DNA of 64,000 nucleotides, from sequence record LC620505.1; one strand, written 5' to 3'. The translations under genes were made by a program, and so were the position numbers. Below are positions 3,704-48,070 of the stretch, in pieces. This DNA is from Escherichia phage NiC89. The notes under the pieces were generated by a model. It saw only the letters and a program-made list of their open reading frames with translations, was not told the DNA's origin and did no database searches. Position 1 is the first letter of the stretch. Each line of letters opens with the position of its first letter.

Positions 3704-3856
3704 TCAATTAGTTGACTTTGTTATAATATCATCAGACACTTGATTTGTAAACTGGTCTGTGTTATTTTCTTCAAAAATTTTTTCTACGAATTCCTTGAAC
3801 GACTTACGTTCCTGAGCTACATTATGCTCGATTACTTTTTCAAGATTATGACTCAT
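3704..3856 (-). CDS. Hypothetical 50-aa protein (not in supplied ORF track)
   Basis: Hand-translated ORF MSHNLEKVIEHNVAQERKSF...; its ATG overlaps the stop of the upstream gene (ATGA). Confidence 0.35.
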   Translation of the reverse strand: MSHNLEKVIEHNVAQERKSFKEFVEKIFEENNTDQFTNQVSDDIITKSTN

Positions 3857-4131
3857 TCGAAATAATCTTCAATTTCATAATCATGGACATAAATCATTAT
3901 AGTTTTTAATACATCATCAATACTTTTTCCTGGAGCTGGAATTACGTAAAAATATCCTGCTTTTGAGAGGTCTTTATAAGTTCCAATCAAGAAATCATTA
4001 TTCTCAAGATGTAGTTCTTCAACTAATTCATTAACAATTGAGTGGTATAAATTTGGTAGAAACTTATATAGCTTTTCTAGAATATCAATTTTGATTGTGT
4101 ATTGAACCACAGACTGAGAATCAATAATCAT
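3853..4131 (-). CDS. arn: Putative Arn (anti-restriction, McrBC inhibitor) homologue
   Basis: 92 aa, same length as T4 Arn; acidic; position between asiA and motA. Identity rests on size and synteny only. Confidence 0.45.
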   Translation of the reverse strand: MIIDSQSVVQYTIKIDILEKLYKFLPNLYHSIVNELVEELHLENNDFLIGTYKDLSKAGYFYVIPAPGKSIDDVLKTIMIYVHDYEIEDYFE

Positions 4132-4214
4132 AGACCTTCCCCTTATGTTTCTGTTTGCGATTAGATTCTTTAAACGCTTTCTTCTTATCCTTATGAACAG
4201 AAGCTTTATTAAAA

Positions 4215-4433
4215 TTATGTTTTGCGACTAAATTGTTCATAGTGCTGAATTACCTCTCTTAAACATTTGCATGTGAATGAAAACTTTTTAGCTACACCGC
4301 ATTCAAATATATGTTCTCTTAAATCACGTGTATCAGTATATCCCATCTCAACAATAAAATGCCTTATTAGATTTTTATCTTTATCATTGAGAGAATTAAA
4401 ATAATCAGATTTTGAATTAATTTCCCTGGCCAA
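4215..4433 (-). CDS. Hypothetical protein (arn-motA block)
   Basis: 72-aa ORF in operon-like array, overlapping neighbour ends. Confidence 0.5.
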   Translation of the reverse strand: MAREINSKSDYFNSLNDKDKNLIRHFIVEMGYTDTRDLREHIFECGVAKKFSFTCKCLREVIQHYEQFSRKT

Positions 4434-4713
4434 ATTGAATCACCTTCAGTTGACGTTTTAATTCTTTTATCATTTCTTCGTTCATCGCAATATAAAGATC
4501 GCGTAAAGCAGGTTTTAGCATTCCATTTACCGGAGAACTAAATGGGCATACATAATCTTTTCCTACAAGCTTTTTGGTAAATTCCATATCACAAAATTTA
4601 AATGCTGGCTCATTCGCATAAATTCCCCAATTAGTTGACATCATTTTATTGGCATATTCCAGTGCCTGAATTTGATTCATAATTCCATCGATTTGAAACT
4701 TTTTAATATTCAT
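4417..4713 (-). CDS. Hypothetical protein (arn-motA block)
   Basis: 98-aa ORF, tightly packed with neighbours. Confidence 0.5.
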   Translation of the reverse strand: MNIKKFQIDGIMNQIQALEYANKMMSTNWGIYANEPAFKFCDMEFTKKLVGKDYVCPFSSPVNGMLKPALRDLYIAMNEEMIKELKRQLKVIQFGQGN

Positions 4714-28143: not shown

Positions 28144-28344
28144 ATGGTACAAAAATTAATGGCACTTGTTAATGCCATAAAAGGTAATAAAAAACGTATA
28201 GCTTTTACTATTTCTGCTATGGTAGGAATTTTACTCTGGAACTTTATTCTATCACCTATTGCAATTGCACATGGTATTAATATTCCAGTAGTTACTCTTG
28301 ATACATTTGTAGATTTAGCATTTGCTTTAGTTGGGTTAATTTAA
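28144..28344 (+). CDS. Candidate small membrane protein, 66 aa, convergent with gene 61
   Basis: TAAGGAGG then ATG; two hydrophobic segments; occupies the 56-61 interval where T4 carries 69/dam. Could be a chance ORF in AT-rich DNA. Confidence 0.3.
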   Translation: MVQKLMALVNAIKGNKKRIAFTISAMVGILLWNFILSPIAIAHGINIPVVTLDTFVDLAFALVGLI

Positions 28345-29369
28345 ATCTTAGCATATTTAGATAACCGCATTTTAGCCATCAACCCCTGGGCAATATTATT
28401 TTTCATATATTCCATAATTTGTTCAGGGGTTGCACCTTCCTTTCTAATCATATCATTAACATCTTTTGATTTCCAGGGAGATTTATCCCAAAACATAACC
28501 CTTTCTCCTGCATCAACTAATTTAGTCATTCGCTTGATAGTGTCAGGGTGACGAGGTTCATTATCTAAGACCCACACTCGTCTATCTTTAAATGGAACAA
28601 CTTCTAGGTCTAATTGACCACCCGTAATAGCTATACCATTTTCAATAAAAAGTGAATCTATAGGTCCTTCTAGAACATATACATCGCCATCTTTAACTCG
28701 TTCAACACCGTAAATTTTTGTTGCCTCAGGATAAGCTTTAATGGTGATATATTTTTGAGGAGCATCTTTCTTTAATGCACGTCCTTGAAAAGACTCAGCC
28801 TTTCCGTTAGCATTATAAATTGGAATAACAAGACGAGGCTCAGGTATTTCCTTTTTATATGTTCCCGGTACTATGCTATTAACCAATTTAGGCCATTCGG
28901 TTGTAAACCAAAGATATTTCCATTTATCCTTTGGAATACAACGAGCTTTTACATATTTTATAATTGGATGGTCTTCCGCCAGTTTATCTAATCTAACACA
29001 TGACGGAAGAGATTTAATTATTTTCTTCTCAGGTTGTTTAGGAAGTTCTTTAGGTTTTTCTACTGGACGACTTTTACCTTTTTCTTTTCTTATTTCAAAG
29101 ATATACTCACGATATAAATCAGGTTCAAACTCCTTTAAATATATTCCTATTGGTGCATGATAGTTACAGTTATAACAGTGAATATTTCCTTCATTATTAT
29201 CACCATAATACCATCCACGAGCTTTATTCTGGTCGGTTTTTGAATCTCCACAAACAGGGCATCTAAACCGCAATTTAAAAGTTGAACTATTATTTACTTG
29301 TGTGAATTTAGGTAAATGAGCTAATGCACGGTATGCAAACTCATTATCAATCCAAGGTATTGATGACAT
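28341..29369 (-). CDS. 61: DNA primase gp61
   Basis: 342 aa, same length as T4 gp61; N-terminal zinc ribbon CPVCGDS...CYNC. Confidence 0.9.
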   Translation of the reverse strand: MSSIPWIDNEFAYRALAHLPKFTQVNNSSTFKLRFRCPVCGDSKTDQNKARGWYYGDNNEGNIHCYNCNYHAPIGIYLKEFEPDLYREYIFEIRKEKGKSRPVEKPKELPKQPEKKIIKSLPSCVRLDKLAEDHPIIKYVKARCIPKDKWKYLWFTTEWPKLVNSIVPGTYKKEIPEPRLVIPIYNANGKAESFQGRALKKDAPQKYITIKAYPEATKIYGVERVKDGDVYVLEGPIDSLFIENGIAITGGQLDLEVVPFKDRRVWVLDNEPRHPDTIKRMTKLVDAGERVMFWDKSPWKSKDVNDMIRKEGATPEQIMEYMKNNIAQGLMAKMRLSKYAKI

Positions 29370-29371
29370 TT

Positions 29372-29536
29372 TTACTCTTCTTTTTCTTTAGATTCCTCTT
29401 TTTTCTTTTTAGGAATCTGTTCAGGACCTTTATTTACTACAGCGCCTGATGTTGTTCCAGTAGAGATATTTTCAGGACTACCACCTGAATCTCCAGCAAC
29501 CATATCTTCTTTGATAAATTCTTTATATGTTTTCAT
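29372..29536 (-). CDS. Hypothetical protein, 54 aa, Lys/Glu-rich tail (not in ORF track)
   Basis: Hand-translated MKTYKEFIKEDMVAGDSGGSPENISTGTTSGAVVNKGPEQIPKKKKEESKEKEE. Confidence 0.4.
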   Translation of the reverse strand: MKTYKEFIKEDMVAGDSGGSPENISTGTTSGAVVNKGPEQIPKKKKEESKEKEE

Positions 29537-29580
29537 ATTAACCTCTATTCATAAAAGCATTAAAAATTTGGTCATCAATC
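29535..29580 (-). repeat. Direct repeat copy A (~46 bp) spanning the 3' end of the 118-aa gene
   Basis: 43/46 identical to 29891-29936. Confidence 0.7.
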
Positions 29581-29894
29581 GATGGAATAGCAACTTTTTC
29601 TGCATCATTTAGCAAATCATTAATTTCATCAGATAGCATAACACATGTATCTTTATTTCCTGTAATTGTTACTGCGCAATTACGAACATTTTCTTTATTA
29701 AATTTTAGGTTAATATTTTCGTAATGAAAATCCTTTAATGCTGAATATATTTTTAAAATAAAATTGTCTTTTACTACAATAAACCCAACCTCACTATTAA
29801 AACGTGGCTCATGGAAACTGTAATAAACCTTTTCATCTATAAAATCGTATGAAATTTTTTCCATTTTTAAATATGAAAATTCAGAACTATACAT
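29538..29894 (-). CDS. Hypothetical protein, 118 aa; single-domain paralogue of the 213-aa neighbour
   Basis: Shares FIVVKDN core and identical C-terminal SIDDQIFNAFMN(R/K)G with 29896..30537. Confidence 0.6.
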   Translation of the reverse strand: MYSSEFSYLKMEKISYDFIDEKVYYSFHEPRFNSEVGFIVVKDNFILKIYSALKDFHYENINLKFNKENVRNCAVTITGNKDTCVMLSDEINDLLNDAEKVAIPSIDDQIFNAFMNRG

Positions 29895-29936
29895 ATTAAC
29901 CTTTATTCATAAAAGCATTAAAAATTTGATCGTCAA
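29891..29936 (-). repeat. Direct repeat copy B (~46 bp) spanning the 3' end of the 213-aa gene
   Basis: 43/46 identical to 29535-29580. Confidence 0.7.
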
Positions 29937-30537
29937 TAGAAACTTTTACTTTAGGCTGTTCTTCAAACGGTAATTCATATCCACATATTACAATTTTGTG
30001 ATCGATACCAAAATACACAGAAGCAATATGATTAATATTATTTTCAGTGAAATCTAAATCAACATCAATATCTTTTTGACCACAGCCCAAAGGATAAATA
30101 ATGCGAGTAATTCGATTATCTTTAACAAATATTCCACCGACATACTCTGTGCTGCGTTTAAAGTCTACACGCCGACGAAATGAAAAATATTCAGGCTCTC
30201 TATGAGCTCGGCTCATAGGACACAACGAGTAACTAGAATAAGAGATGTCAAATCCTACGCCTTCAATATGAGCCAACGTGTCATGATTAAACCAATTATA
30301 ATCGTACGCCAAGTCCATTAGATTATAATATGTAAAAGGCACCGGATTAACATCATATGTTGTACCTTTAAAATCTGCCCAGGCAACGATTTCATTATCT
30401 TTAACAATTACAAAAATTGTGCCAATAAGATATCCACGGTTATTTTCATCAGGCGTTATATTATAACATTGTGCATCAGGAAATTTACCGTATTTAAACG
30501 GTGGATTTTTGTGCATATAATAAATCATATTATTCAC
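29896..30537 (-). CDS. Hypothetical protein, 213 aa, two tandem KDN-motif domains (61.2-like by position)
   Basis: Internal duplication: IFVIVKDNEIV and GGIFVKDNRITRIIY. Confidence 0.6.
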   Translation of the reverse strand: MNNMIYYMHKNPPFKYGKFPDAQCYNITPDENNRGYLIGTIFVIVKDNEIVAWADFKGTTYDVNPVPFTYYNLMDLAYDYNWFNHDTLAHIEGVGFDISYSSYSLCPMSRAHREPEYFSFRRRVDFKRSTEYVGGIFVKDNRITRIIYPLGCGQKDIDVDLDFTENNINHIASVYFGIDHKIVICGYELPFEEQPKVKVSIDDQIFNAFMNKG

Positions 30538-30823
30538 CTGTGATTTCGGTTACGATATTTTTGTTATTAAAGTTTTTATCGCAATACAGAACATAATTAT
30601 ACTGCATTACACCACCAGACTTAAGCTGTTTTTGTACTTCAGCTTTCATTTCAGGACGATCGCGCTCAACGATATTCATAATATCCGCTTCAATTTGAGT
30701 TTCAACTTCAGTCTGATCCGCAGTCATAGACCATTCACACAAATCTTTATCATAACCTGCCATAGCAGGCTGAGCAGCACAAGAAGCTAAAGCAAAAATT
30801 GTAGCAAAAATAAATTTTTTCAT
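30530..30823 (-). CDS. sp: Spackle (Sp) periplasmic protein, superinfection exclusion
   Basis: 97 aa, same length as T4 Sp; cleavable signal peptide; position between 61.x genes and dmd. Confidence 0.7.
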   Translation of the reverse strand: MKKFIFATIFALASCAAQPAMAGYDKDLCEWSMTADQTEVETQIEADIMNIVERDRPEMKAEVQKQLKSGGVMQYNYVLYCDKNFNNKNIVTEITGE

Positions 30824-30883
30824 GATAATCTCCTCAGTAGTTTATGTTTATATAGTATCTCAATTTCCAACAAAAGTAAATAG

Positions 30884-31141
30884 TTATTTTAAAACTTCTG
30901 CATAATCACATGTTACAAACTGTTTCTCTAACTTAACGATCTTACGAAAATATCTTTTGCATTGACGAATCTGCCTCTTCGTAGGACGTACAGCAAACTT
31001 AATAAATTCCACTCGACCAAATGGAGGACTTTCTTCTGCTGGAATATCTAGCACCAATTCCCATGTATCTGCAATAAGTGCTTTGAATTGCGTATTTTTC
31101 CTGACGTTATATGGAGTAGGTTTAAATAAAACAATATGCAT
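30884..31141 (-). CDS. Basic 85-aa protein (61.4 position; possibly the ToxN-inhibitor TifA)
   Basis: Highly basic; immediately downstream of dmd. The TifA assignment is from my recollection that tifA lies beside dmd, not from sequence recognition. Confidence 0.4.
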   Translation of the reverse strand: MHIVLFKPTPYNVRKNTQFKALIADTWELVLDIPAEESPPFGRVEFIKFAVRPTKRQIRQCKRYFRKIVKLEKQFVTCDYAEVLK

Positions 31142-31142
31142 A

Positions 31143-31325
31143 TTATCCTCGGCAATCTACTTCACATACTTTCTTGTCATCAATGAAAGCTTTAACTAAT
31201 GCTTTATTAACTTCAGCATATTGAGTAGTAGCCCATTGAACGTCATCTTTCATCATTGTGGTTTCTTTAGTAAACATGCTTTCATTCTTAAACCACCCCA
31301 TAAAAACTACCTTTACCAATTCCAT
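31143..31325 (-). CDS. dmd: Dmd, antitoxin against RnlA/LsoA
   Basis: 60 aa; sequence MELVKVVFMGWFKNESMFTKETT... consistent with T4 Dmd; adjacent to gene 41. Confidence 0.8.
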   Translation of the reverse strand: MELVKVVFMGWFKNESMFTKETTMMKDDVQWATTQYAEVNKALVKAFIDDKKVCEVDCRG

Positions 31326-31354
31326 AACAATCTCCTCATTTAACCAACAAGACT

Positions 31355-31384
31355 ACTATACCATAGTCTTGTCAGCTTGTAAAC
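31355..31384 (-). promoter_or_regulatory. T4-type early promoter upstream of dmd
   Basis: GTTTAC (31379-31384), 18-bp spacer, TGGTATAGT. Confidence 0.55.
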
Positions 31385-32811
31385 TAAAATTTTAATTCAT
31401 TTGCCAAAGCATCTAACTGAGCTCGAGCTGATTCGTTTCTTTGATAGCGATTCTGTTCAGCCTGAATCTGTTGTGAACCTGCTACTTCACTCACTTCGGT
31501 TGGAGTAGAATCTTGTTCAATTTCTACCCATTTTTGATTTCCTTTTTGAACACCCATCAAAAACTTATTCCACTTATTCTTATCACCATATCGTGATTTG
31601 ATTTGCTTAATGAGTTGTTGTTCAGCAGCTGCTAGCTCCTCGGTTTCAATGACCGCAAGCATAAAATCAGCTGTTGCTGGAAGACCGGCAGATTCTGCAA
31701 TATCGCTCATGTTAACATCGGAAGAGTCCCAAGCTTGTTTACCGACCTGTGCTGCAGTCCAAAGAACAGTTTCGGTTTCAACAGCAAGAGCACGTAATTC
31801 CTCTGCAATAGCTTTAACAGTTGTGTAACTATTTTCTGAATAAACTCTGATGCGGCAAGATTTACAAATACCTAGATAGTCGACAATAATGATTGTTGGA
31901 ACAAAATTCTTTTTGAGCTTCAATTCATTCAAGAGAGACCTGAATGTATTAGCGTCTGCTCCACCAGTAGGGTACTGTTTAACGATTAAACGACCGAGAG
32001 TAGATTTCTCACGCCATTTTTCCATTTTTCCTTTATACTCGGCATAAGAAATATGTCCATCATCAATGTCATCAAGAGAAACATCGAGCATGTTAGCATC
32101 AATACGTTTAGCACAGACTTCTTCTGCCATTTCCATGGAGATATAAAGAACGTTATGACCAAGCTGCAAATAATCTGCTGCTAATGAACAAAGTCCTAAT
32201 GATTTACCAACGTTAACGCCAGCCATTAAAACGTTCAGTGTTCCAGTCTCAGCTCCGCCTTTAGTAATTTTATTTAGAATTTTGAGTCTAAATGGAACTT
32301 TACGAGCTTTATTCATATAAGATAGCCAACGTGCTTCATAGTCATCCATCCAATCATGGCCAACGTAGCTATCAAATGAAATTGATAATGCCTGGCGCAT
32401 GATGTCAGGAATAGCACCAACATCCGGCATTTTCTTATTTCGTTTTTCCGGAGGAAGCTCAGCATTAGTTTGAATTTCGATTATTTTAGACGTAGCATTA
32501 AACATCGCCCTTTGCTGAACATATTTTTCTGTTTCTTTTACTAACCAGCTGTGGTCTTCTGGAGAATCAGTCAGTTTTGAAATAAGTGTTTTTACACCAG
32601 AATATTCTGTTTCAGTAAATGAACTATTTTCTAATGCAACATTTAACGCATTAATAGATGGAACGCTATGATACTCGTTGACATGAGATTTAATTAATTT
32701 GAATGTATTTTTAGCTGGACCACTTTCAAAATATTCTGAATCCATATATGGCCAAACTTTTGAAAAATAAGCTTGATCAAATATGAGATGAGAAAGAATA
32801 ATTTCTACCAC
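31384..32811 (-). CDS. 41: Replicative DNA helicase gp41 (DnaB-like)
   Basis: 475 aa, same length as T4 gp41; Walker A GVNVGKS. Confidence 0.9.
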   Translation of the reverse strand: MVEIILSHLIFDQAYFSKVWPYMDSEYFESGPAKNTFKLIKSHVNEYHSVPSINALNVALENSSFTETEYSGVKTLISKLTDSPEDHSWLVKETEKYVQQRAMFNATSKIIEIQTNAELPPEKRNKKMPDVGAIPDIMRQALSISFDSYVGHDWMDDYEARWLSYMNKARKVPFRLKILNKITKGGAETGTLNVLMAGVNVGKSLGLCSLAADYLQLGHNVLYISMEMAEEVCAKRIDANMLDVSLDDIDDGHISYAEYKGKMEKWREKSTLGRLIVKQYPTGGADANTFRSLLNELKLKKNFVPTIIIVDYLGICKSCRIRVYSENSYTTVKAIAEELRALAVETETVLWTAAQVGKQAWDSSDVNMSDIAESAGLPATADFMLAVIETEELAAAEQQLIKQIKSRYGDKNKWNKFLMGVQKGNQKWVEIEQDSTPTEVSEVAGSQQIQAEQNRYQRNESARAQLDALANELKF

Positions 32812-34416: not shown

Positions 34417-35265
34417 TTAATCAACTGCTATTGGATGAATAGCATTAAACTTATGAAATGCTTCTGATTTTTCTTTACGTGAAACACACATGCGAAGAAC
34501 CTTTAATGGCTCGTCTTCTTCACCCAACGATTTTCGTTTTTCAATATTAGAAGTTTTCCAACGAGCTTGCTCTGGAAACTCTCTATTGATTTGCTCAAGC
34601 GCTCTATTATGTTTAGAATTACTACGAATTGAACTGCACCCGCCAGGAGCTTGTGCTTTTCCAGATACAACCAGATATTTGAACAAGGCCAAATGCGGAT
34701 AACCTTGATTAATTAAATTGAGAAATGCATACATATCTTCGCACAAATCAATTTTTCCATACCCAATTTGTTCTGTCGTAAGTTTTCCAAGGTCATACCA
34801 TGTATTCGTGAATCCGTATGAATTTTCACGATAATTACCCCAAGATGAAGTAATTTTAAAAATTGGTAGACGAGCATGACCATGATAATACCCACAATCC
34901 ATGGCATCCTCAACATATTGAATCAATTCATAGAACTGTTCACGAGTCAATTGATTGACTTTATCTACGCAACGACGATCATCTCTTTTTCGCATTGAAC
35001 TCATACGAATAGTAGTATCATCGTCAATCATCCAGATTCGTTGACCTGCATACATATCAGTAATTGCTTTACGAGTACCGGCAATTCCGTTTACATCATC
35101 AGGAATAGTTATAATTTTAGCTCTAGACCCATAGGCATCATAATAAGCTTTTTCTTCATGTTCACGCACTACAATATGAGGTTCATAATCAGTCGGAAAC
35201 ATATCAAGGGCAGAAACTGCCCCGACACGCTGATAACTTGGAATTACGAATTGAATCATTTCCAC
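34417..35265 (-). CDS. GT-A (DxD) glycosyltransferase in the beta-gt slot; candidate beta-glucosyl-HMC-alpha-glucosyltransferase
   Basis: 282 aa with IWMIDDDTTI motif; lies between uvsX and gene 42 where T4 has the 351-aa beta-gt. Confidence 0.5.
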   Translation of the reverse strand: MEMIQFVIPSYQRVGAVSALDMFPTDYEPHIVVREHEEKAYYDAYGSRAKIITIPDDVNGIAGTRKAITDMYAGQRIWMIDDDTTIRMSSMRKRDDRRCVDKVNQLTREQFYELIQYVEDAMDCGYYHGHARLPIFKITSSWGNYRENSYGFTNTWYDLGKLTTEQIGYGKIDLCEDMYAFLNLINQGYPHLALFKYLVVSGKAQAPGGCSSIRSNSKHNRALEQINREFPEQARWKTSNIEKRKSLGEEDEPLKVLRMCVSRKEKSEAFHKFNAIHPIAVD

Positions 35266-36003: not shown

Positions 36004-36153
36004 TCAATTGATACATTCATATTTAACTTGTAACAGTAATAAACTCCAACCTATAATAAGTGGCGGAATCATAAGAGGAACTGTTACGCTATAGTATATA
36101 CTTATTATAATCATCAAGATTAAAAGCAATACTGCTAAAATTTTGCTTTTCAT
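36004..36153 (-). CDS. Small membrane protein, 49 aa (not in ORF track)
   Basis: Hand-translated MKSKILAVLLLILMIIISIYYSVTVPLMIPPLIIGWSLLLLQVKYECIN. Confidence 0.3.
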   Translation of the reverse strand: MKSKILAVLLLILMIIISIYYSVTVPLMIPPLIIGWSLLLLQVKYECIN

Positions 36154-36401
36154 TCCTTCTCTCTGATGATAATTACTTGATTTTGCTGTACAGATTTTTT
36201 AGTTTCACCTGCAATTGACCAAATAAAAGTAATAAACCAACCAATGATTGACCAGTTAAACAGTAAAGATGTGAAAAAGATTCCTACTGTCGATTTTGAC
36301 CCACGCATCAAGGCGATGAACCATGGAAGCATGTATATAATAATAGCCAACACGCCTGAAACTAAAACCATAAAAATTGAACCTGCTACTAAAGTTTCCA
36401 T
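36150..36401 (-). CDS. imm: Immunity protein Imm
   Basis: 83 aa, same length as T4 Imm; two TM segments; position between 42 and 43. Confidence 0.7.
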   Translation of the reverse strand: METLVAGSIFMVLVSGVLAIIIYMLPWFIALMRGSKSTVGIFFTSLLFNWSIIGWFITFIWSIAGETKKSVQQNQVIIIREKE

Positions 36402-36408
36402 GTTTTCC

Positions 36409-36789
36409 TCACTTAGTCAAATTTTTTACACATGAATTATAAGAATTCACTACATACTCCATCGGAGCATTTTTACCGGTACGCCATTGGTAATTATTAG
36501 CCCAATTAGCCCAAATTTCGGCGCAGTAGTTTTCAACTTTTTCTTCGCGTGTAATTACATCAGAATTACGATATGCTTGAGCAGATTCATCTGGGCGAAT
36601 AGCTTCGTCAAAATTTGCCTGCATTTGTTCTACTGTTTGCTTTGGAGCTTCTTTATAACACTTGACATTAGGATTATAAAATTTGCTTGAACAGTTTACA
36701 ATTTTTCCTACATCAGACTGATTTACTACCGGTCCTTGAGCTACACAACCAGTAAGACCTAATGCAATAACCAAAATAACGATTTTCAT
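36409..36789 (-). CDS. Putative lipoprotein, 126 aa
   Basis: Signal peptide with lipobox LTGC|V. Confidence 0.55.
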   Translation of the reverse strand: MKIVILVIALGLTGCVAQGPVVNQSDVGKIVNCSSKFYNPNVKCYKEAPKQTVEQMQANFDEAIRPDESAQAYRNSDVITREEKVENYCAEIWANWANNYQWRTGKNAPMEYVVNSYNSCVKNLTK

Positions 36790-46851: not shown

Positions 46852-46869
46852 AAAGGGCCGAAGCCCTTT
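46852..46869 (-). terminator. UUCG-loop hairpin (aaagggc-cgaa-gcccttt) at alpha-gt stop
   Basis: 7-bp stem. Confidence 0.45.
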
Positions 46870-48070
46870 ATTTTGTAATAATGTCAAACTGTTCTTTAAA
46901 GCAGAAGCTTGAATCTTGGTGCTGATACAAAAATTCATAAGCTTTTTCGCGTTCACGGTCATAAAGAGCTCGGTCAGATGACAGTTCTTTAATACGTTCA
47001 AATGTTGATTCCATGTCATTTTCATCAAACCAAACGATACCGCTATCATGAGAAATTAATGGAGTGTTATCAACACGGAATTTTAAATTTTCGCCAGTAG
47101 ATTTCCAAAATACCGGAATTGTTCCACATGCACCAAGCTCGAGATGAGTATATTCTAAAGAACGTTGTAGATATTTTTTATCCAACTTACTCAACTGATA
47201 ACCAAAACCGGATTTACTCATACGTTCAAGCATTTCGCTATTTACATAACGGTCAAGAATTTGCGTTGGCAAATTAGGAGCAATTTTAATTTGGTCTACT
47301 TGATGAAGACGATAATACTCGTATGGAATTCCTTTTTCTTTAATAGGAATGAACGCTGGAGAACGTTCCAGACCTTCCATAATAGTACTTAGTCCTGCAG
47401 GTTTAAGATGTTTTTCATGAAAATCAAACATCTGATAAAAACCTTTCCATGTAGTCGTGCGACCAATCCAACGGTTGATATTCATGTTAATTTCAGAAAC
47501 ATCTTTCCAGTAGGTTGACCGAACCTTCGCAATATCCATAGGAGGCTGAAAGTTATATACTGTCGGTGCTTCTTCAATATCATCAAACAGAGAAACAGTT
47601 TCTGGATACCATTCTTTCATCAGAACTTTATTAAAATCACCATTATCAGAATGGCTAAAAATAACATCAGCTCGACGAACAGTTTCTTCTAATCCCAAAT
47701 TTCGACGCAAAGAAAGAGAAGAATGGTCATGTTGATAAACTACAACACGAACAGAAGGTTTAATGTTATCAATAATTTTTTTATAGTTATTAATAGAGTC
47801 TTCTTCAACCGAAGTAGCAGGAACTGAATTGATAATTAGAATATCACAATCATTTACCAGCTTAAGTGTTTTATCGTATTCTTTTGCCAATAAAACCGGA
47901 ATTGAAAATGATTTATAATCATGCGCACAATTACGAGTAAATGATTTATCTTTAGCATAAACCAAAGTTACTTCATGACCATTTTTAATAAACCAATCAC
48001 GTTGCTCAAGAGAAAATTTAGTTACACCACAACCTTCAAGACCTCGAGCCATAAAAATACATACTTTCAT
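46868..48070 (-). CDS. a-gt: DNA alpha-glucosyltransferase
   Basis: 400 aa, same length as T4 alpha-gt; position after gene 47. Confidence 0.8.
   Translation of the reverse strand: MKVCIFMARGLEGCGVTKFSLEQRDWFIKNGHEVTLVYAKDKSFTRNCAHDYKSFSIPVLLAKEYDKTLKLVNDCDILIINSVPATSVEEDSINNYKKIIDNIKPSVRVVVYQHDHSSLSLRRNLGLEETVRRADVIFSHSDNGDFNKVLMKEWYPETVSLFDDIEEAPTVYNFQPPMDIAKVRSTYWKDVSEINMNINRWIGRTTTWKGFYQMFDFHEKHLKPAGLSTIMEGLERSPAFIPIKEKGIPYEYYRLHQVDQIKIAPNLPTQILDRYVNSEMLERMSKSGFGYQLSKLDKKYLQRSLEYTHLELGACGTIPVFWKSTGENLKFRVDNTPLISHDSGIVWFDENDMESTFERIKELSSDRALYDREREKAYEFLYQHQDSSFCFKEQFDIITK

Follow-up and report, generated by a model that had tools for sequence, protein, structure and literature searches.

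A compact group of small genes in a 64,000-nucleotide stretch of DNA from Escherichia phage NiC89 (LC620505.1; the whole stretch is called the window here) appears to be the conserved 'anti-toxin/exclusion' segment that lies between genes 41 and 61 of Tequatrovirus, with T4-type gene functions and an arrangement into two transcription units that is in part conjectural. We put the probability of this reading at about 0.93. To judge by its sequence, the window itself is a segment of a T4-like phage genome (Tequatrovirus). An earlier reading made from the letters and their open reading frames (ORFs), referred to below as the sequence-only reading, had picked out three adjacent small genes: one for a 97-residue signal-peptide protein matched to Spackle, one for an 85-residue highly basic protein in the slot expected for the ToxN inhibitor gene tifA, and one for the 60-residue antitoxin Dmd. 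The ORF list of the window holds all three, adjacent on the minus strand and exactly where they had been placed:

31143..31325, minus strand: dmd (61.5), 60 amino acids, assigned by Pfam Dmd, identity to T4 and the PDB
30884..31141, minus strand: tifA (61.4), 85 amino acids, assigned by identity to T4 gp61.4, Pfam DUF7279 and phrog_2375
30530..30823, minus strand: sp (61.3), Spackle, 97 amino acids, assigned by Pfam T4_Spackle, the PDB and identity to T4

Genome comparison gives the order 41, dmd, 61.4, sp, 61.2, 61.1, 61, as annotated in T4, with one additional gene (orf118) in the window, and the same synteny is seen in T4, Ec_O157kw and NR1. A stretch of 1,051 bases around the locus is 99.6% identical to phage NBEco003, and at least 80% of this stretch is found in 502 phage records. 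The three genes and the concept of an island have already been published for T4, and the locus is an ordinary one of its kind. Gene identities, residue conservation, spacing and promoter conservation were observed directly.

The 85-residue protein is identical to T4 gp61.4 at 84 of 85 positions, the sole change being I83V, and it matches Pfam DUF7279 (72.7 bits, cut-off 24.5) and phrog_2375 (2.4e-38). On sequence identity, it is TifA. T4 gene 61.4 is the gene that was renamed tifA and whose product inhibits ToxN (Srikant, Guegler & Laub, eLife 2022, PMC9391042), and the placing of tifA in this slot was therefore correct; the comparison with TifA that the sequence-only reading had called for does find similarity. 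The protein is also as basic as had been described (pI 9.83, net charge +8), with the charge concentrated in residues 46–70, which carry +5 to +7. T4 TifA binds both ToxN and RNA, and the toxin is trapped in a ribonucleoprotein complex, notably with 16S rRNA (Guegler et al., NAR 2023, PMC10853763). Neutralisation and RNA binding depend on P53 and T54, which form a Pro-Thr cap, and on three basic residues, K55, R56 and R59, and residue 41, in the predicted ToxN interface, tunes potency, with F weak and S or H strong (PMC10853763). P53, T54, K55, R56 and R59 are invariant across the window, T4 and RB69, and residue 41 of the window's protein is F, the weaker T4-type allele. The single change, I83V, sits in a 15-residue C-terminal extension that is absent from the fully active TifA of RB69. 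Binding of ToxN and rescue from its toxicity have been shown for TifA of T4, T2, T6 and RB69. The features listed support, by analogy with T4, a role for the window's TifA as a basic protein that binds RNA and inhibits ToxN, a type III toxin. The gene tifA and its T4 counterpart differ at 12 nucleotides. Ten of these changes fall at third positions, and of the 12 codons affected, 11 are altered synonymously; compared with phage NR1, 10 changed codons are synonymous and two are non-synonymous. Substitutions so overwhelmingly third-position or synonymous indicate a real gene under purifying selection. The exact TifA allele occurs in 87 phage records. PDB sequence searches with TifA, and with the AdfA protein described below, returned zero matches even at E <= 1.

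The Dmd assignment of the sequence-only reading is borne out by a match to Pfam PF17587 over profile positions 1–60 of 60 (153.5 bits, cut-off 27; 1.8e-45), by a match to the solved T4 structure (PDB 5hy3_B, 9.6e-37) and by identity to T4 Dmd at 59 of 60 residues, with I22T as the sole change. This exact allele (T22) is found in 99 phage records. According to the literature (Otsuka & Yonesaki 2012, as cited there), T4 Dmd directly inhibits the HEPN RNase toxins RnlA and LsoA, and dmd-minus phage fails on rnlAB-positive hosts. By analogy, a role for the window's dmd product as a 60-residue antitoxin mimic acting against RnlA and LsoA is supported.

Spackle is equally recognisable, as had been proposed, and PHROGs bears out the Pfam assignments. 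The 97-residue protein matches Pfam PF25676 (T4_Spackle) over its full length (153 bits, cut-off 27; 3.5e-45) and PDB 6x6o_A (2.1e-60), and it is identical to T4 Spackle at 92 of 97 residues, with the changes K53E, I91V, A92T, V94I and V95T. Its signal peptide, residues 1–22 (MKKFIFATIFALASCAAQPAMA, with G following the cleavage site), is identical to that of T4. The mature 75-residue chain of 7cn6 aligns to residues 23–97, and since that chain begins at residue 23 the length of 22 residues is confirmed. The summary account of T4 Spackle in Shi et al. (Commun Biol 2020; structures PDB 6X6O/6XC0/6XC1/7CN6/7CN7) describes a protein with a C29–C81 disulfide that acts in the periplasm to inhibit the tail lysozyme gp5 and provides superinfection exclusion against T-even phages. 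C29, C81 and the gp5-contact residues S32, M33, T34, A35, Q37 and N76 are all invariant with respect to T4 Spackle, and the five substitutions fall outside the contact residues named in that account. The exact Spackle allele occurs in 14 phage records.

The sequence-only reading had all three genes driven by an early promoter at 31355–31384. This holds for the first two, and for sp the arrangement looks different. Two sites are of interest:

31355..31384, minus strand: early sigma-70 promoter of dmd-tifA, (G)TTTACA, 17 nucleotides, TGgTATAGT
30852..30881, minus strand: promoter-like site in the tifA-sp spacer, (A)TTTACT, 17 nucleotides, TACTAT, read directly from the sequence

In a 2.5-kb scan the first site (31383..31355) is the best sigma-70 match, with 10 of 12 positions, and the sole one with an extended -10 TG. 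It lies in the 58-nucleotide spacer between gene 41 and dmd, which is the first gene after the helicase gene, a layout shared with T4; one base of this spacer differs from T4, downstream of the -10 hexamer and outside both hexamers. As a class, promoter-like sites are not enriched in the same 2.5 kb (15 found, 11.4 +/- 3.7 in shuffled sequences), so the call rests on the quality, position and conservation of the site and on the published T4 promoter. For T4, dmd and 61.4 have been described as forming a locus of two genes under an early promoter upstream of dmd (PMC9391042). The tifA start codon lies 1 nucleotide past the dmd stop, in a TAATATG junction, and the gaps from dmd through to 61.1 are 1, 60, 1, 1 and 1 nucleotides. 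The genes sp, adfA, orf118 and 61.1 are linked by 1-nucleotide TAATATG junctions of their own into a translationally coupled string that is separate from dmd-tifA. The 60-nucleotide gap between tifA and sp is again one base off T4, which has GTTTACT at this site, and a promoter downstream of tifA is mentioned for T4 (PMC9391042). We infer that the site at 30852..30881 is the probable promoter of the sp string. A terminator scan of 29200–31700 found no terminator-like hairpin, so transcripts that start at the dmd promoter may read through into sp.

Other regulatory elements were sought as well. No T4 late promoter (TATAAATA) was found in the locus, and a search of the whole window with Rfam at gathering thresholds gave zero matches, leaving the locus and its surroundings without a known structured RNA. 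The sole full match to a MotA box ([AT]3-TGCTT[TC]A) between 28300 and 31500 is at 30797 on the minus strand, inside the signal-peptide coding region of sp; it was set aside, as a reading of the sequence downstream showed no convincing -10 element.

The remaining genes of the segment and its flanks are as follows:

29896..30528, minus strand: adfA (61.2), 210 amino acids, assigned by Pfam AdfA and alignment with T4 and RB69
29538..29894, minus strand: orf118, 118 amino acids, assigned by BLASTP to AdfA, Pfam AdfA and phrog_4122
29372..29536, minus strand: 61.1, 54 amino acids, assigned by phrog_1823 and collinear with T4 61.1; the last small gene before primase gene 61
31384–32811: replicative helicase gene 41
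28341–29369: primase gene 61

NCBIfam gave zero matches for all six small proteins. AdfA matches Pfam PF23813 over its full length (460 bits, 7.4e-139), and overall it shares 83% identity with the RB69 protein and 78% with that of T4. The copies compared were those of the window (29896–30528), L005 (1859–2491) and RB69 (L004, 3003–3641). In work of the LeRoux lab, summarised by Johannesman et al. (Nat Commun 2025), DarT1 is bound and neutralised by RB69 AdfA when it carries R164H; in T4 the His occurs naturally. In the alignment with T4 and RB69, H167 of the window's AdfA corresponds to RB69 position 164. An assignment of the window's adfA as an anti-DarT factor carrying the DarT1-active His allele is thus supported by analogy. 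The presence of adfA and a half-size paralogue immediately beside the three genes also supports a counter-defence role for the locus more strongly than the sequence-only reading could know. At the residue that matches RB69 164, on which DarT1 specificity turns, the window has H, RB69 has R and NR1 has N. The protein is a mosaic, with an N-terminal part of about 75 residues that is RB69-like and unlike T4, and adfA has the highest non-synonymous share in the locus in the comparison with NR1 (13 non-synonymous and 21 synonymous changed codons).

The duplicated KDN-domain genes noticed earlier beside the cluster correspond to adfA and this paralogue (BLASTP 3e-11), and to this extent the observation stands. 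The two are separate things, however, since orf118 matches the C-terminal half of AdfA only. An internal 'KDN' duplication within AdfA, as the wording of that observation implies, was also considered and is not supported, the BLASTP comparison of its N-terminal and C-terminal halves being non-significant (E = 0.34).

If each biochemical activity carries over from the T4 proteins, which are 95–99% identical, the locus could work as follows. Host RNA polymerase would fire the promoter at 31383..31355 right after infection and transcribe dmd and tifA as one unit, and the promoter-like site in the spacer, possibly together with readthrough, would yield sp along with adfA, orf118 and 61.1. Dmd would bind RnlA and LsoA, both endoribonucleases, in the groove that separates their NRD and HEPN domains, standing in for the labile host antitoxins RnlB and LsoB, and phage mRNAs would survive. 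The Pro-Thr-capped basic helix of TifA (K55, R56, R59) would hold RNA as the loop around residue 41 holds ToxN, and the toxin, trapped on RNA and notably on 16S rRNA, would leave phage transcripts uncut. Spackle would be exported, lose its 22-residue signal peptide, form the C29–C81 disulfide and block superinfection by binding to a basic patch on the gp5 tail lysozyme that incoming T-even phages carry. Together with the adjacent adfA, whose His allele would make its product a DarT1 binder, this stretch of about 2 kb would then form the toxin-antitoxin (TA) counter-defence cluster, or 'anti-TA island', that was proposed earlier for T4 (Srikant et al. 2022, PMC9391042). The clustering of dmd, tifA and adfA between genes 41 and 61 that defines such an island is found here.

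Comparison with the two best-described relatives helps to show what is constant in the segment. The window resembles the T4 dmd-tifA operon in gene order, in the 1-nucleotide dmd/tifA junction, in the hexamers of the early promoter, in the TifA residues F41, P53, T54, K55, R56 and R59, and in the position of adfA two genes downstream of tifA; it differs in I22T of Dmd, I83V of TifA and the extra orf118. T4 overcomes plasmid-borne toxIN only through gene amplification or F41S/H, whereas in the window tifA is present just once, with no segmental amplification. Spackle shares with its T4 counterpart the length of 97 residues, the signal peptide, C29–C81 and the gp5 contacts, and differs by its five substitutions. 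RB69 (Mosigvirus) keeps the relative order dmd-tifA...sp-adfA and the flanking genes 41 and 61, and the basic helix of its TifA is identical over residues 48–60. Over the whole protein, its TifA is 57% identical; the C-terminal extension of 15 residues is missing, and residue 41 is H (H41), the allele of the stronger inhibitor. Its AdfA carries the inactive R164. In RB69, moreover, the junction of tifA with sp contains a precise insertion of the superinfection-immunity genes imm.1 and imm (RB69 4012–4690, compared with 30824–30883 of the window), and unrelated small ORFs stand where the window has orf118. Measured against the known AdfA system, the window has the 210-residue full-length match and the DarT1-binding His, but adfA is followed by a half-length paralogue.

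How much function should be attributed to the grouping itself is less certain than the identity of its members. The adjacency could be simple inherited synteny of dispensable early genes between 41 and 61, with sp unrelated to the anti-toxin genes; we regard this as somewhat unlikely. In its favour, Spackle would act in the periplasm against other phages and not on a host toxin, the 60-nucleotide spacer with its own promoter-like site parts sp from tifA, RB69 has imm.1/imm at that very junction and unrelated small ORFs for orf118, and T2 is without adfA altogether. Set against this are three independently characterised anti-TA genes (dmd, tifA and adfA) within 1.5 kb, an order dmd-tifA...sp-adfA that is kept from Tequatrovirus to Mosigvirus, and the view of the discoverers of tifA that the region is a candidate anti-TA island. 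The idea of a conserved anti-toxin/exclusion segment seems the better one to us, with several points weighing against it. By analogy with T4, sp is a phage-versus-phage exclusion gene and not an anti-toxin gene, and the imm.1/imm insertion in RB69 would mark the tifA-sp junction as a plastic slot and group sp with exclusion functions, separable from dmd-tifA. The upstream early promoter is documented for dmd-tifA only, and a picture of one locus with one promoter overstates the unity of the cluster; the candidate site for the second unit, in turn, matches at only 8 of 12 positions and is absent from the output of the promoter scan. T4 resists DarTG1 even without its adfA, and a place in the island is therefore no guarantee of a plating phenotype. 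Finally, the window's alleles depart from the T4 proteins that were assayed (I22T in Dmd, I83V in TifA, and K53E plus four changes in residues 91–95 in Spackle); these exact alleles are common in other phages.

Narrower doubts concern TifA and the features themselves. A TifA orthologue might have another physiological role, tuned to a different ToxN-like toxin or serving as a general RNA-binding early protein. This would agree with the failure of F41 T4-type TifA to beat plasmid-borne toxIN, with reports that TifA homologues are toxin-specific and may be 'tuned' to particular ToxNs, and with the binding of RNA by TifA even without ToxN (PMC10853763). It appears quite improbable, however, given that native single-copy T4 tifA suffices against chromosomal toxIN, if not against the plasmid-borne system (PMC9391042), that the TifA proteins of T2, T4 and T6 neutralise ToxN of four enterobacterial species, and that only I83V, in an extension RB69 TifA lacks, separates the window's protein from that of T4. 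As for chance, the region has a G+C content of only 32% and, as noted, its promoter-like hexamer pairs are not enriched over shuffled sequence, and one could ask whether the ORFs or the promoter are accidents of AT-rich DNA. The probability of this is negligible: homology and the substitution pattern already refute it, with full-length hidden Markov model matches at E-values of 1e-20 to 1e-45, solved structures for two of the three proteins, substitutions overwhelmingly at third codon positions, and a promoter spacer one base off T4 with the difference outside both hexamers.

The paralogue of adfA, with its flanking repeats, is the only mildly new item in the segment. orf118 matches the C-terminal half of the adjacent AdfA at 37% identity over 106 residues, and its match to Pfam AdfA (34.9 bits, cut-off 27; 1.3e-8) covers only profile positions 113–211 of 211. 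It does not have the full-length AdfA architecture of about 210 residues, and is a half-length paralogue of AdfA rather than an orthologue. N72 of orf118 stands where AdfA has H167, and the two proteins have in common the tail 'SIDDQIFNAFMN[KR]G'. In the comparison with NR1, nine changed codons are synonymous and six are non-synonymous. Of 472 matching phage records, 298 have the gene at full length, annotated only as hypothetical, and it is absent from T4, in which an exact 358-bp gap takes its place. Two direct repeats bracket it:

29534..29582: first copy of the direct repeat, made up of the 3' end of orf118 and the TAATATG junction
29892..29940: second copy of the direct repeat, made up of the 3' end of adfA and the TAATATG junction

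The repeats are 49 nucleotides long and 92% identical, with a spacing of 358 nucleotides. Only one copy remains in T4; it belongs to the orf118 type (...NRG) and is 100% identical over 42 nucleotides. Because of this lone orf118-type copy and the 358-bp gap, the T4 arrangement is best explained by recombination of the two repeats with loss of the DNA between them. orf118 might be one more anti-toxin of the island, such as one that binds a DarT2-type DarT or another TA toxin, and would then have been lost from T4 by this recombination; we think this unlikely, though if it were so, the loss of the gene from the model phage would explain why orf118 is unstudied. Srikant et al. remark that other genes of this region make attractive candidates for anti-toxins, and orf118 with its recombinogenic repeats, together with the H/R/N polymorphism of AdfA at the DarT-contact position, offers in any case one that is cheap to follow. 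Two small ORFs of RB69 in the same slot were considered as a split homologue of orf118 and set aside, as they could not be aligned.

As a discovery the locus carries little weight, its alleles recurring unchanged in dozens of sequenced phages. By analogy with T4, the combination of F41 TifA, T22 Dmd and a His-type AdfA would suggest a phage that resists rnlAB, lsoAB and chromosomal toxIN and is restricted by high-copy toxIN. The practical use lies in annotation, as tifA is still a 'hypothetical protein' in nearly all T4-like genomes listed. This label stands in almost every such record, RefSeq T4 included, and one T6 record mislabels the gene 'DNA primase/helicase'. A 142-kb 'Pseudomonas phage' record with a 100% identical TifA seems to be T4-like in truth, whether through contamination or a wrong assignment.

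The earlier suggestion that this is the main counter-defence locus of the window holds by density of genes and not as an exclusive claim, for arn and DNA glucosyltransferase genes lie elsewhere. The DNA mimic Arn is at 3853–4131, a TAGT-family glycosyltransferase is at 34417–35265 (the slot is annotated as beta-glucosyl-HMC-alpha-glucosyltransferase in phage Ec_O157kw), and an alpha-glucosyltransferase is at 46868–48070. The window also has an imm.1-like gene (DUF5481) at 36409–36789, and beside it an 83-residue ORF (36150–36401) that looks membrane-spanning and occupies the position of imm.

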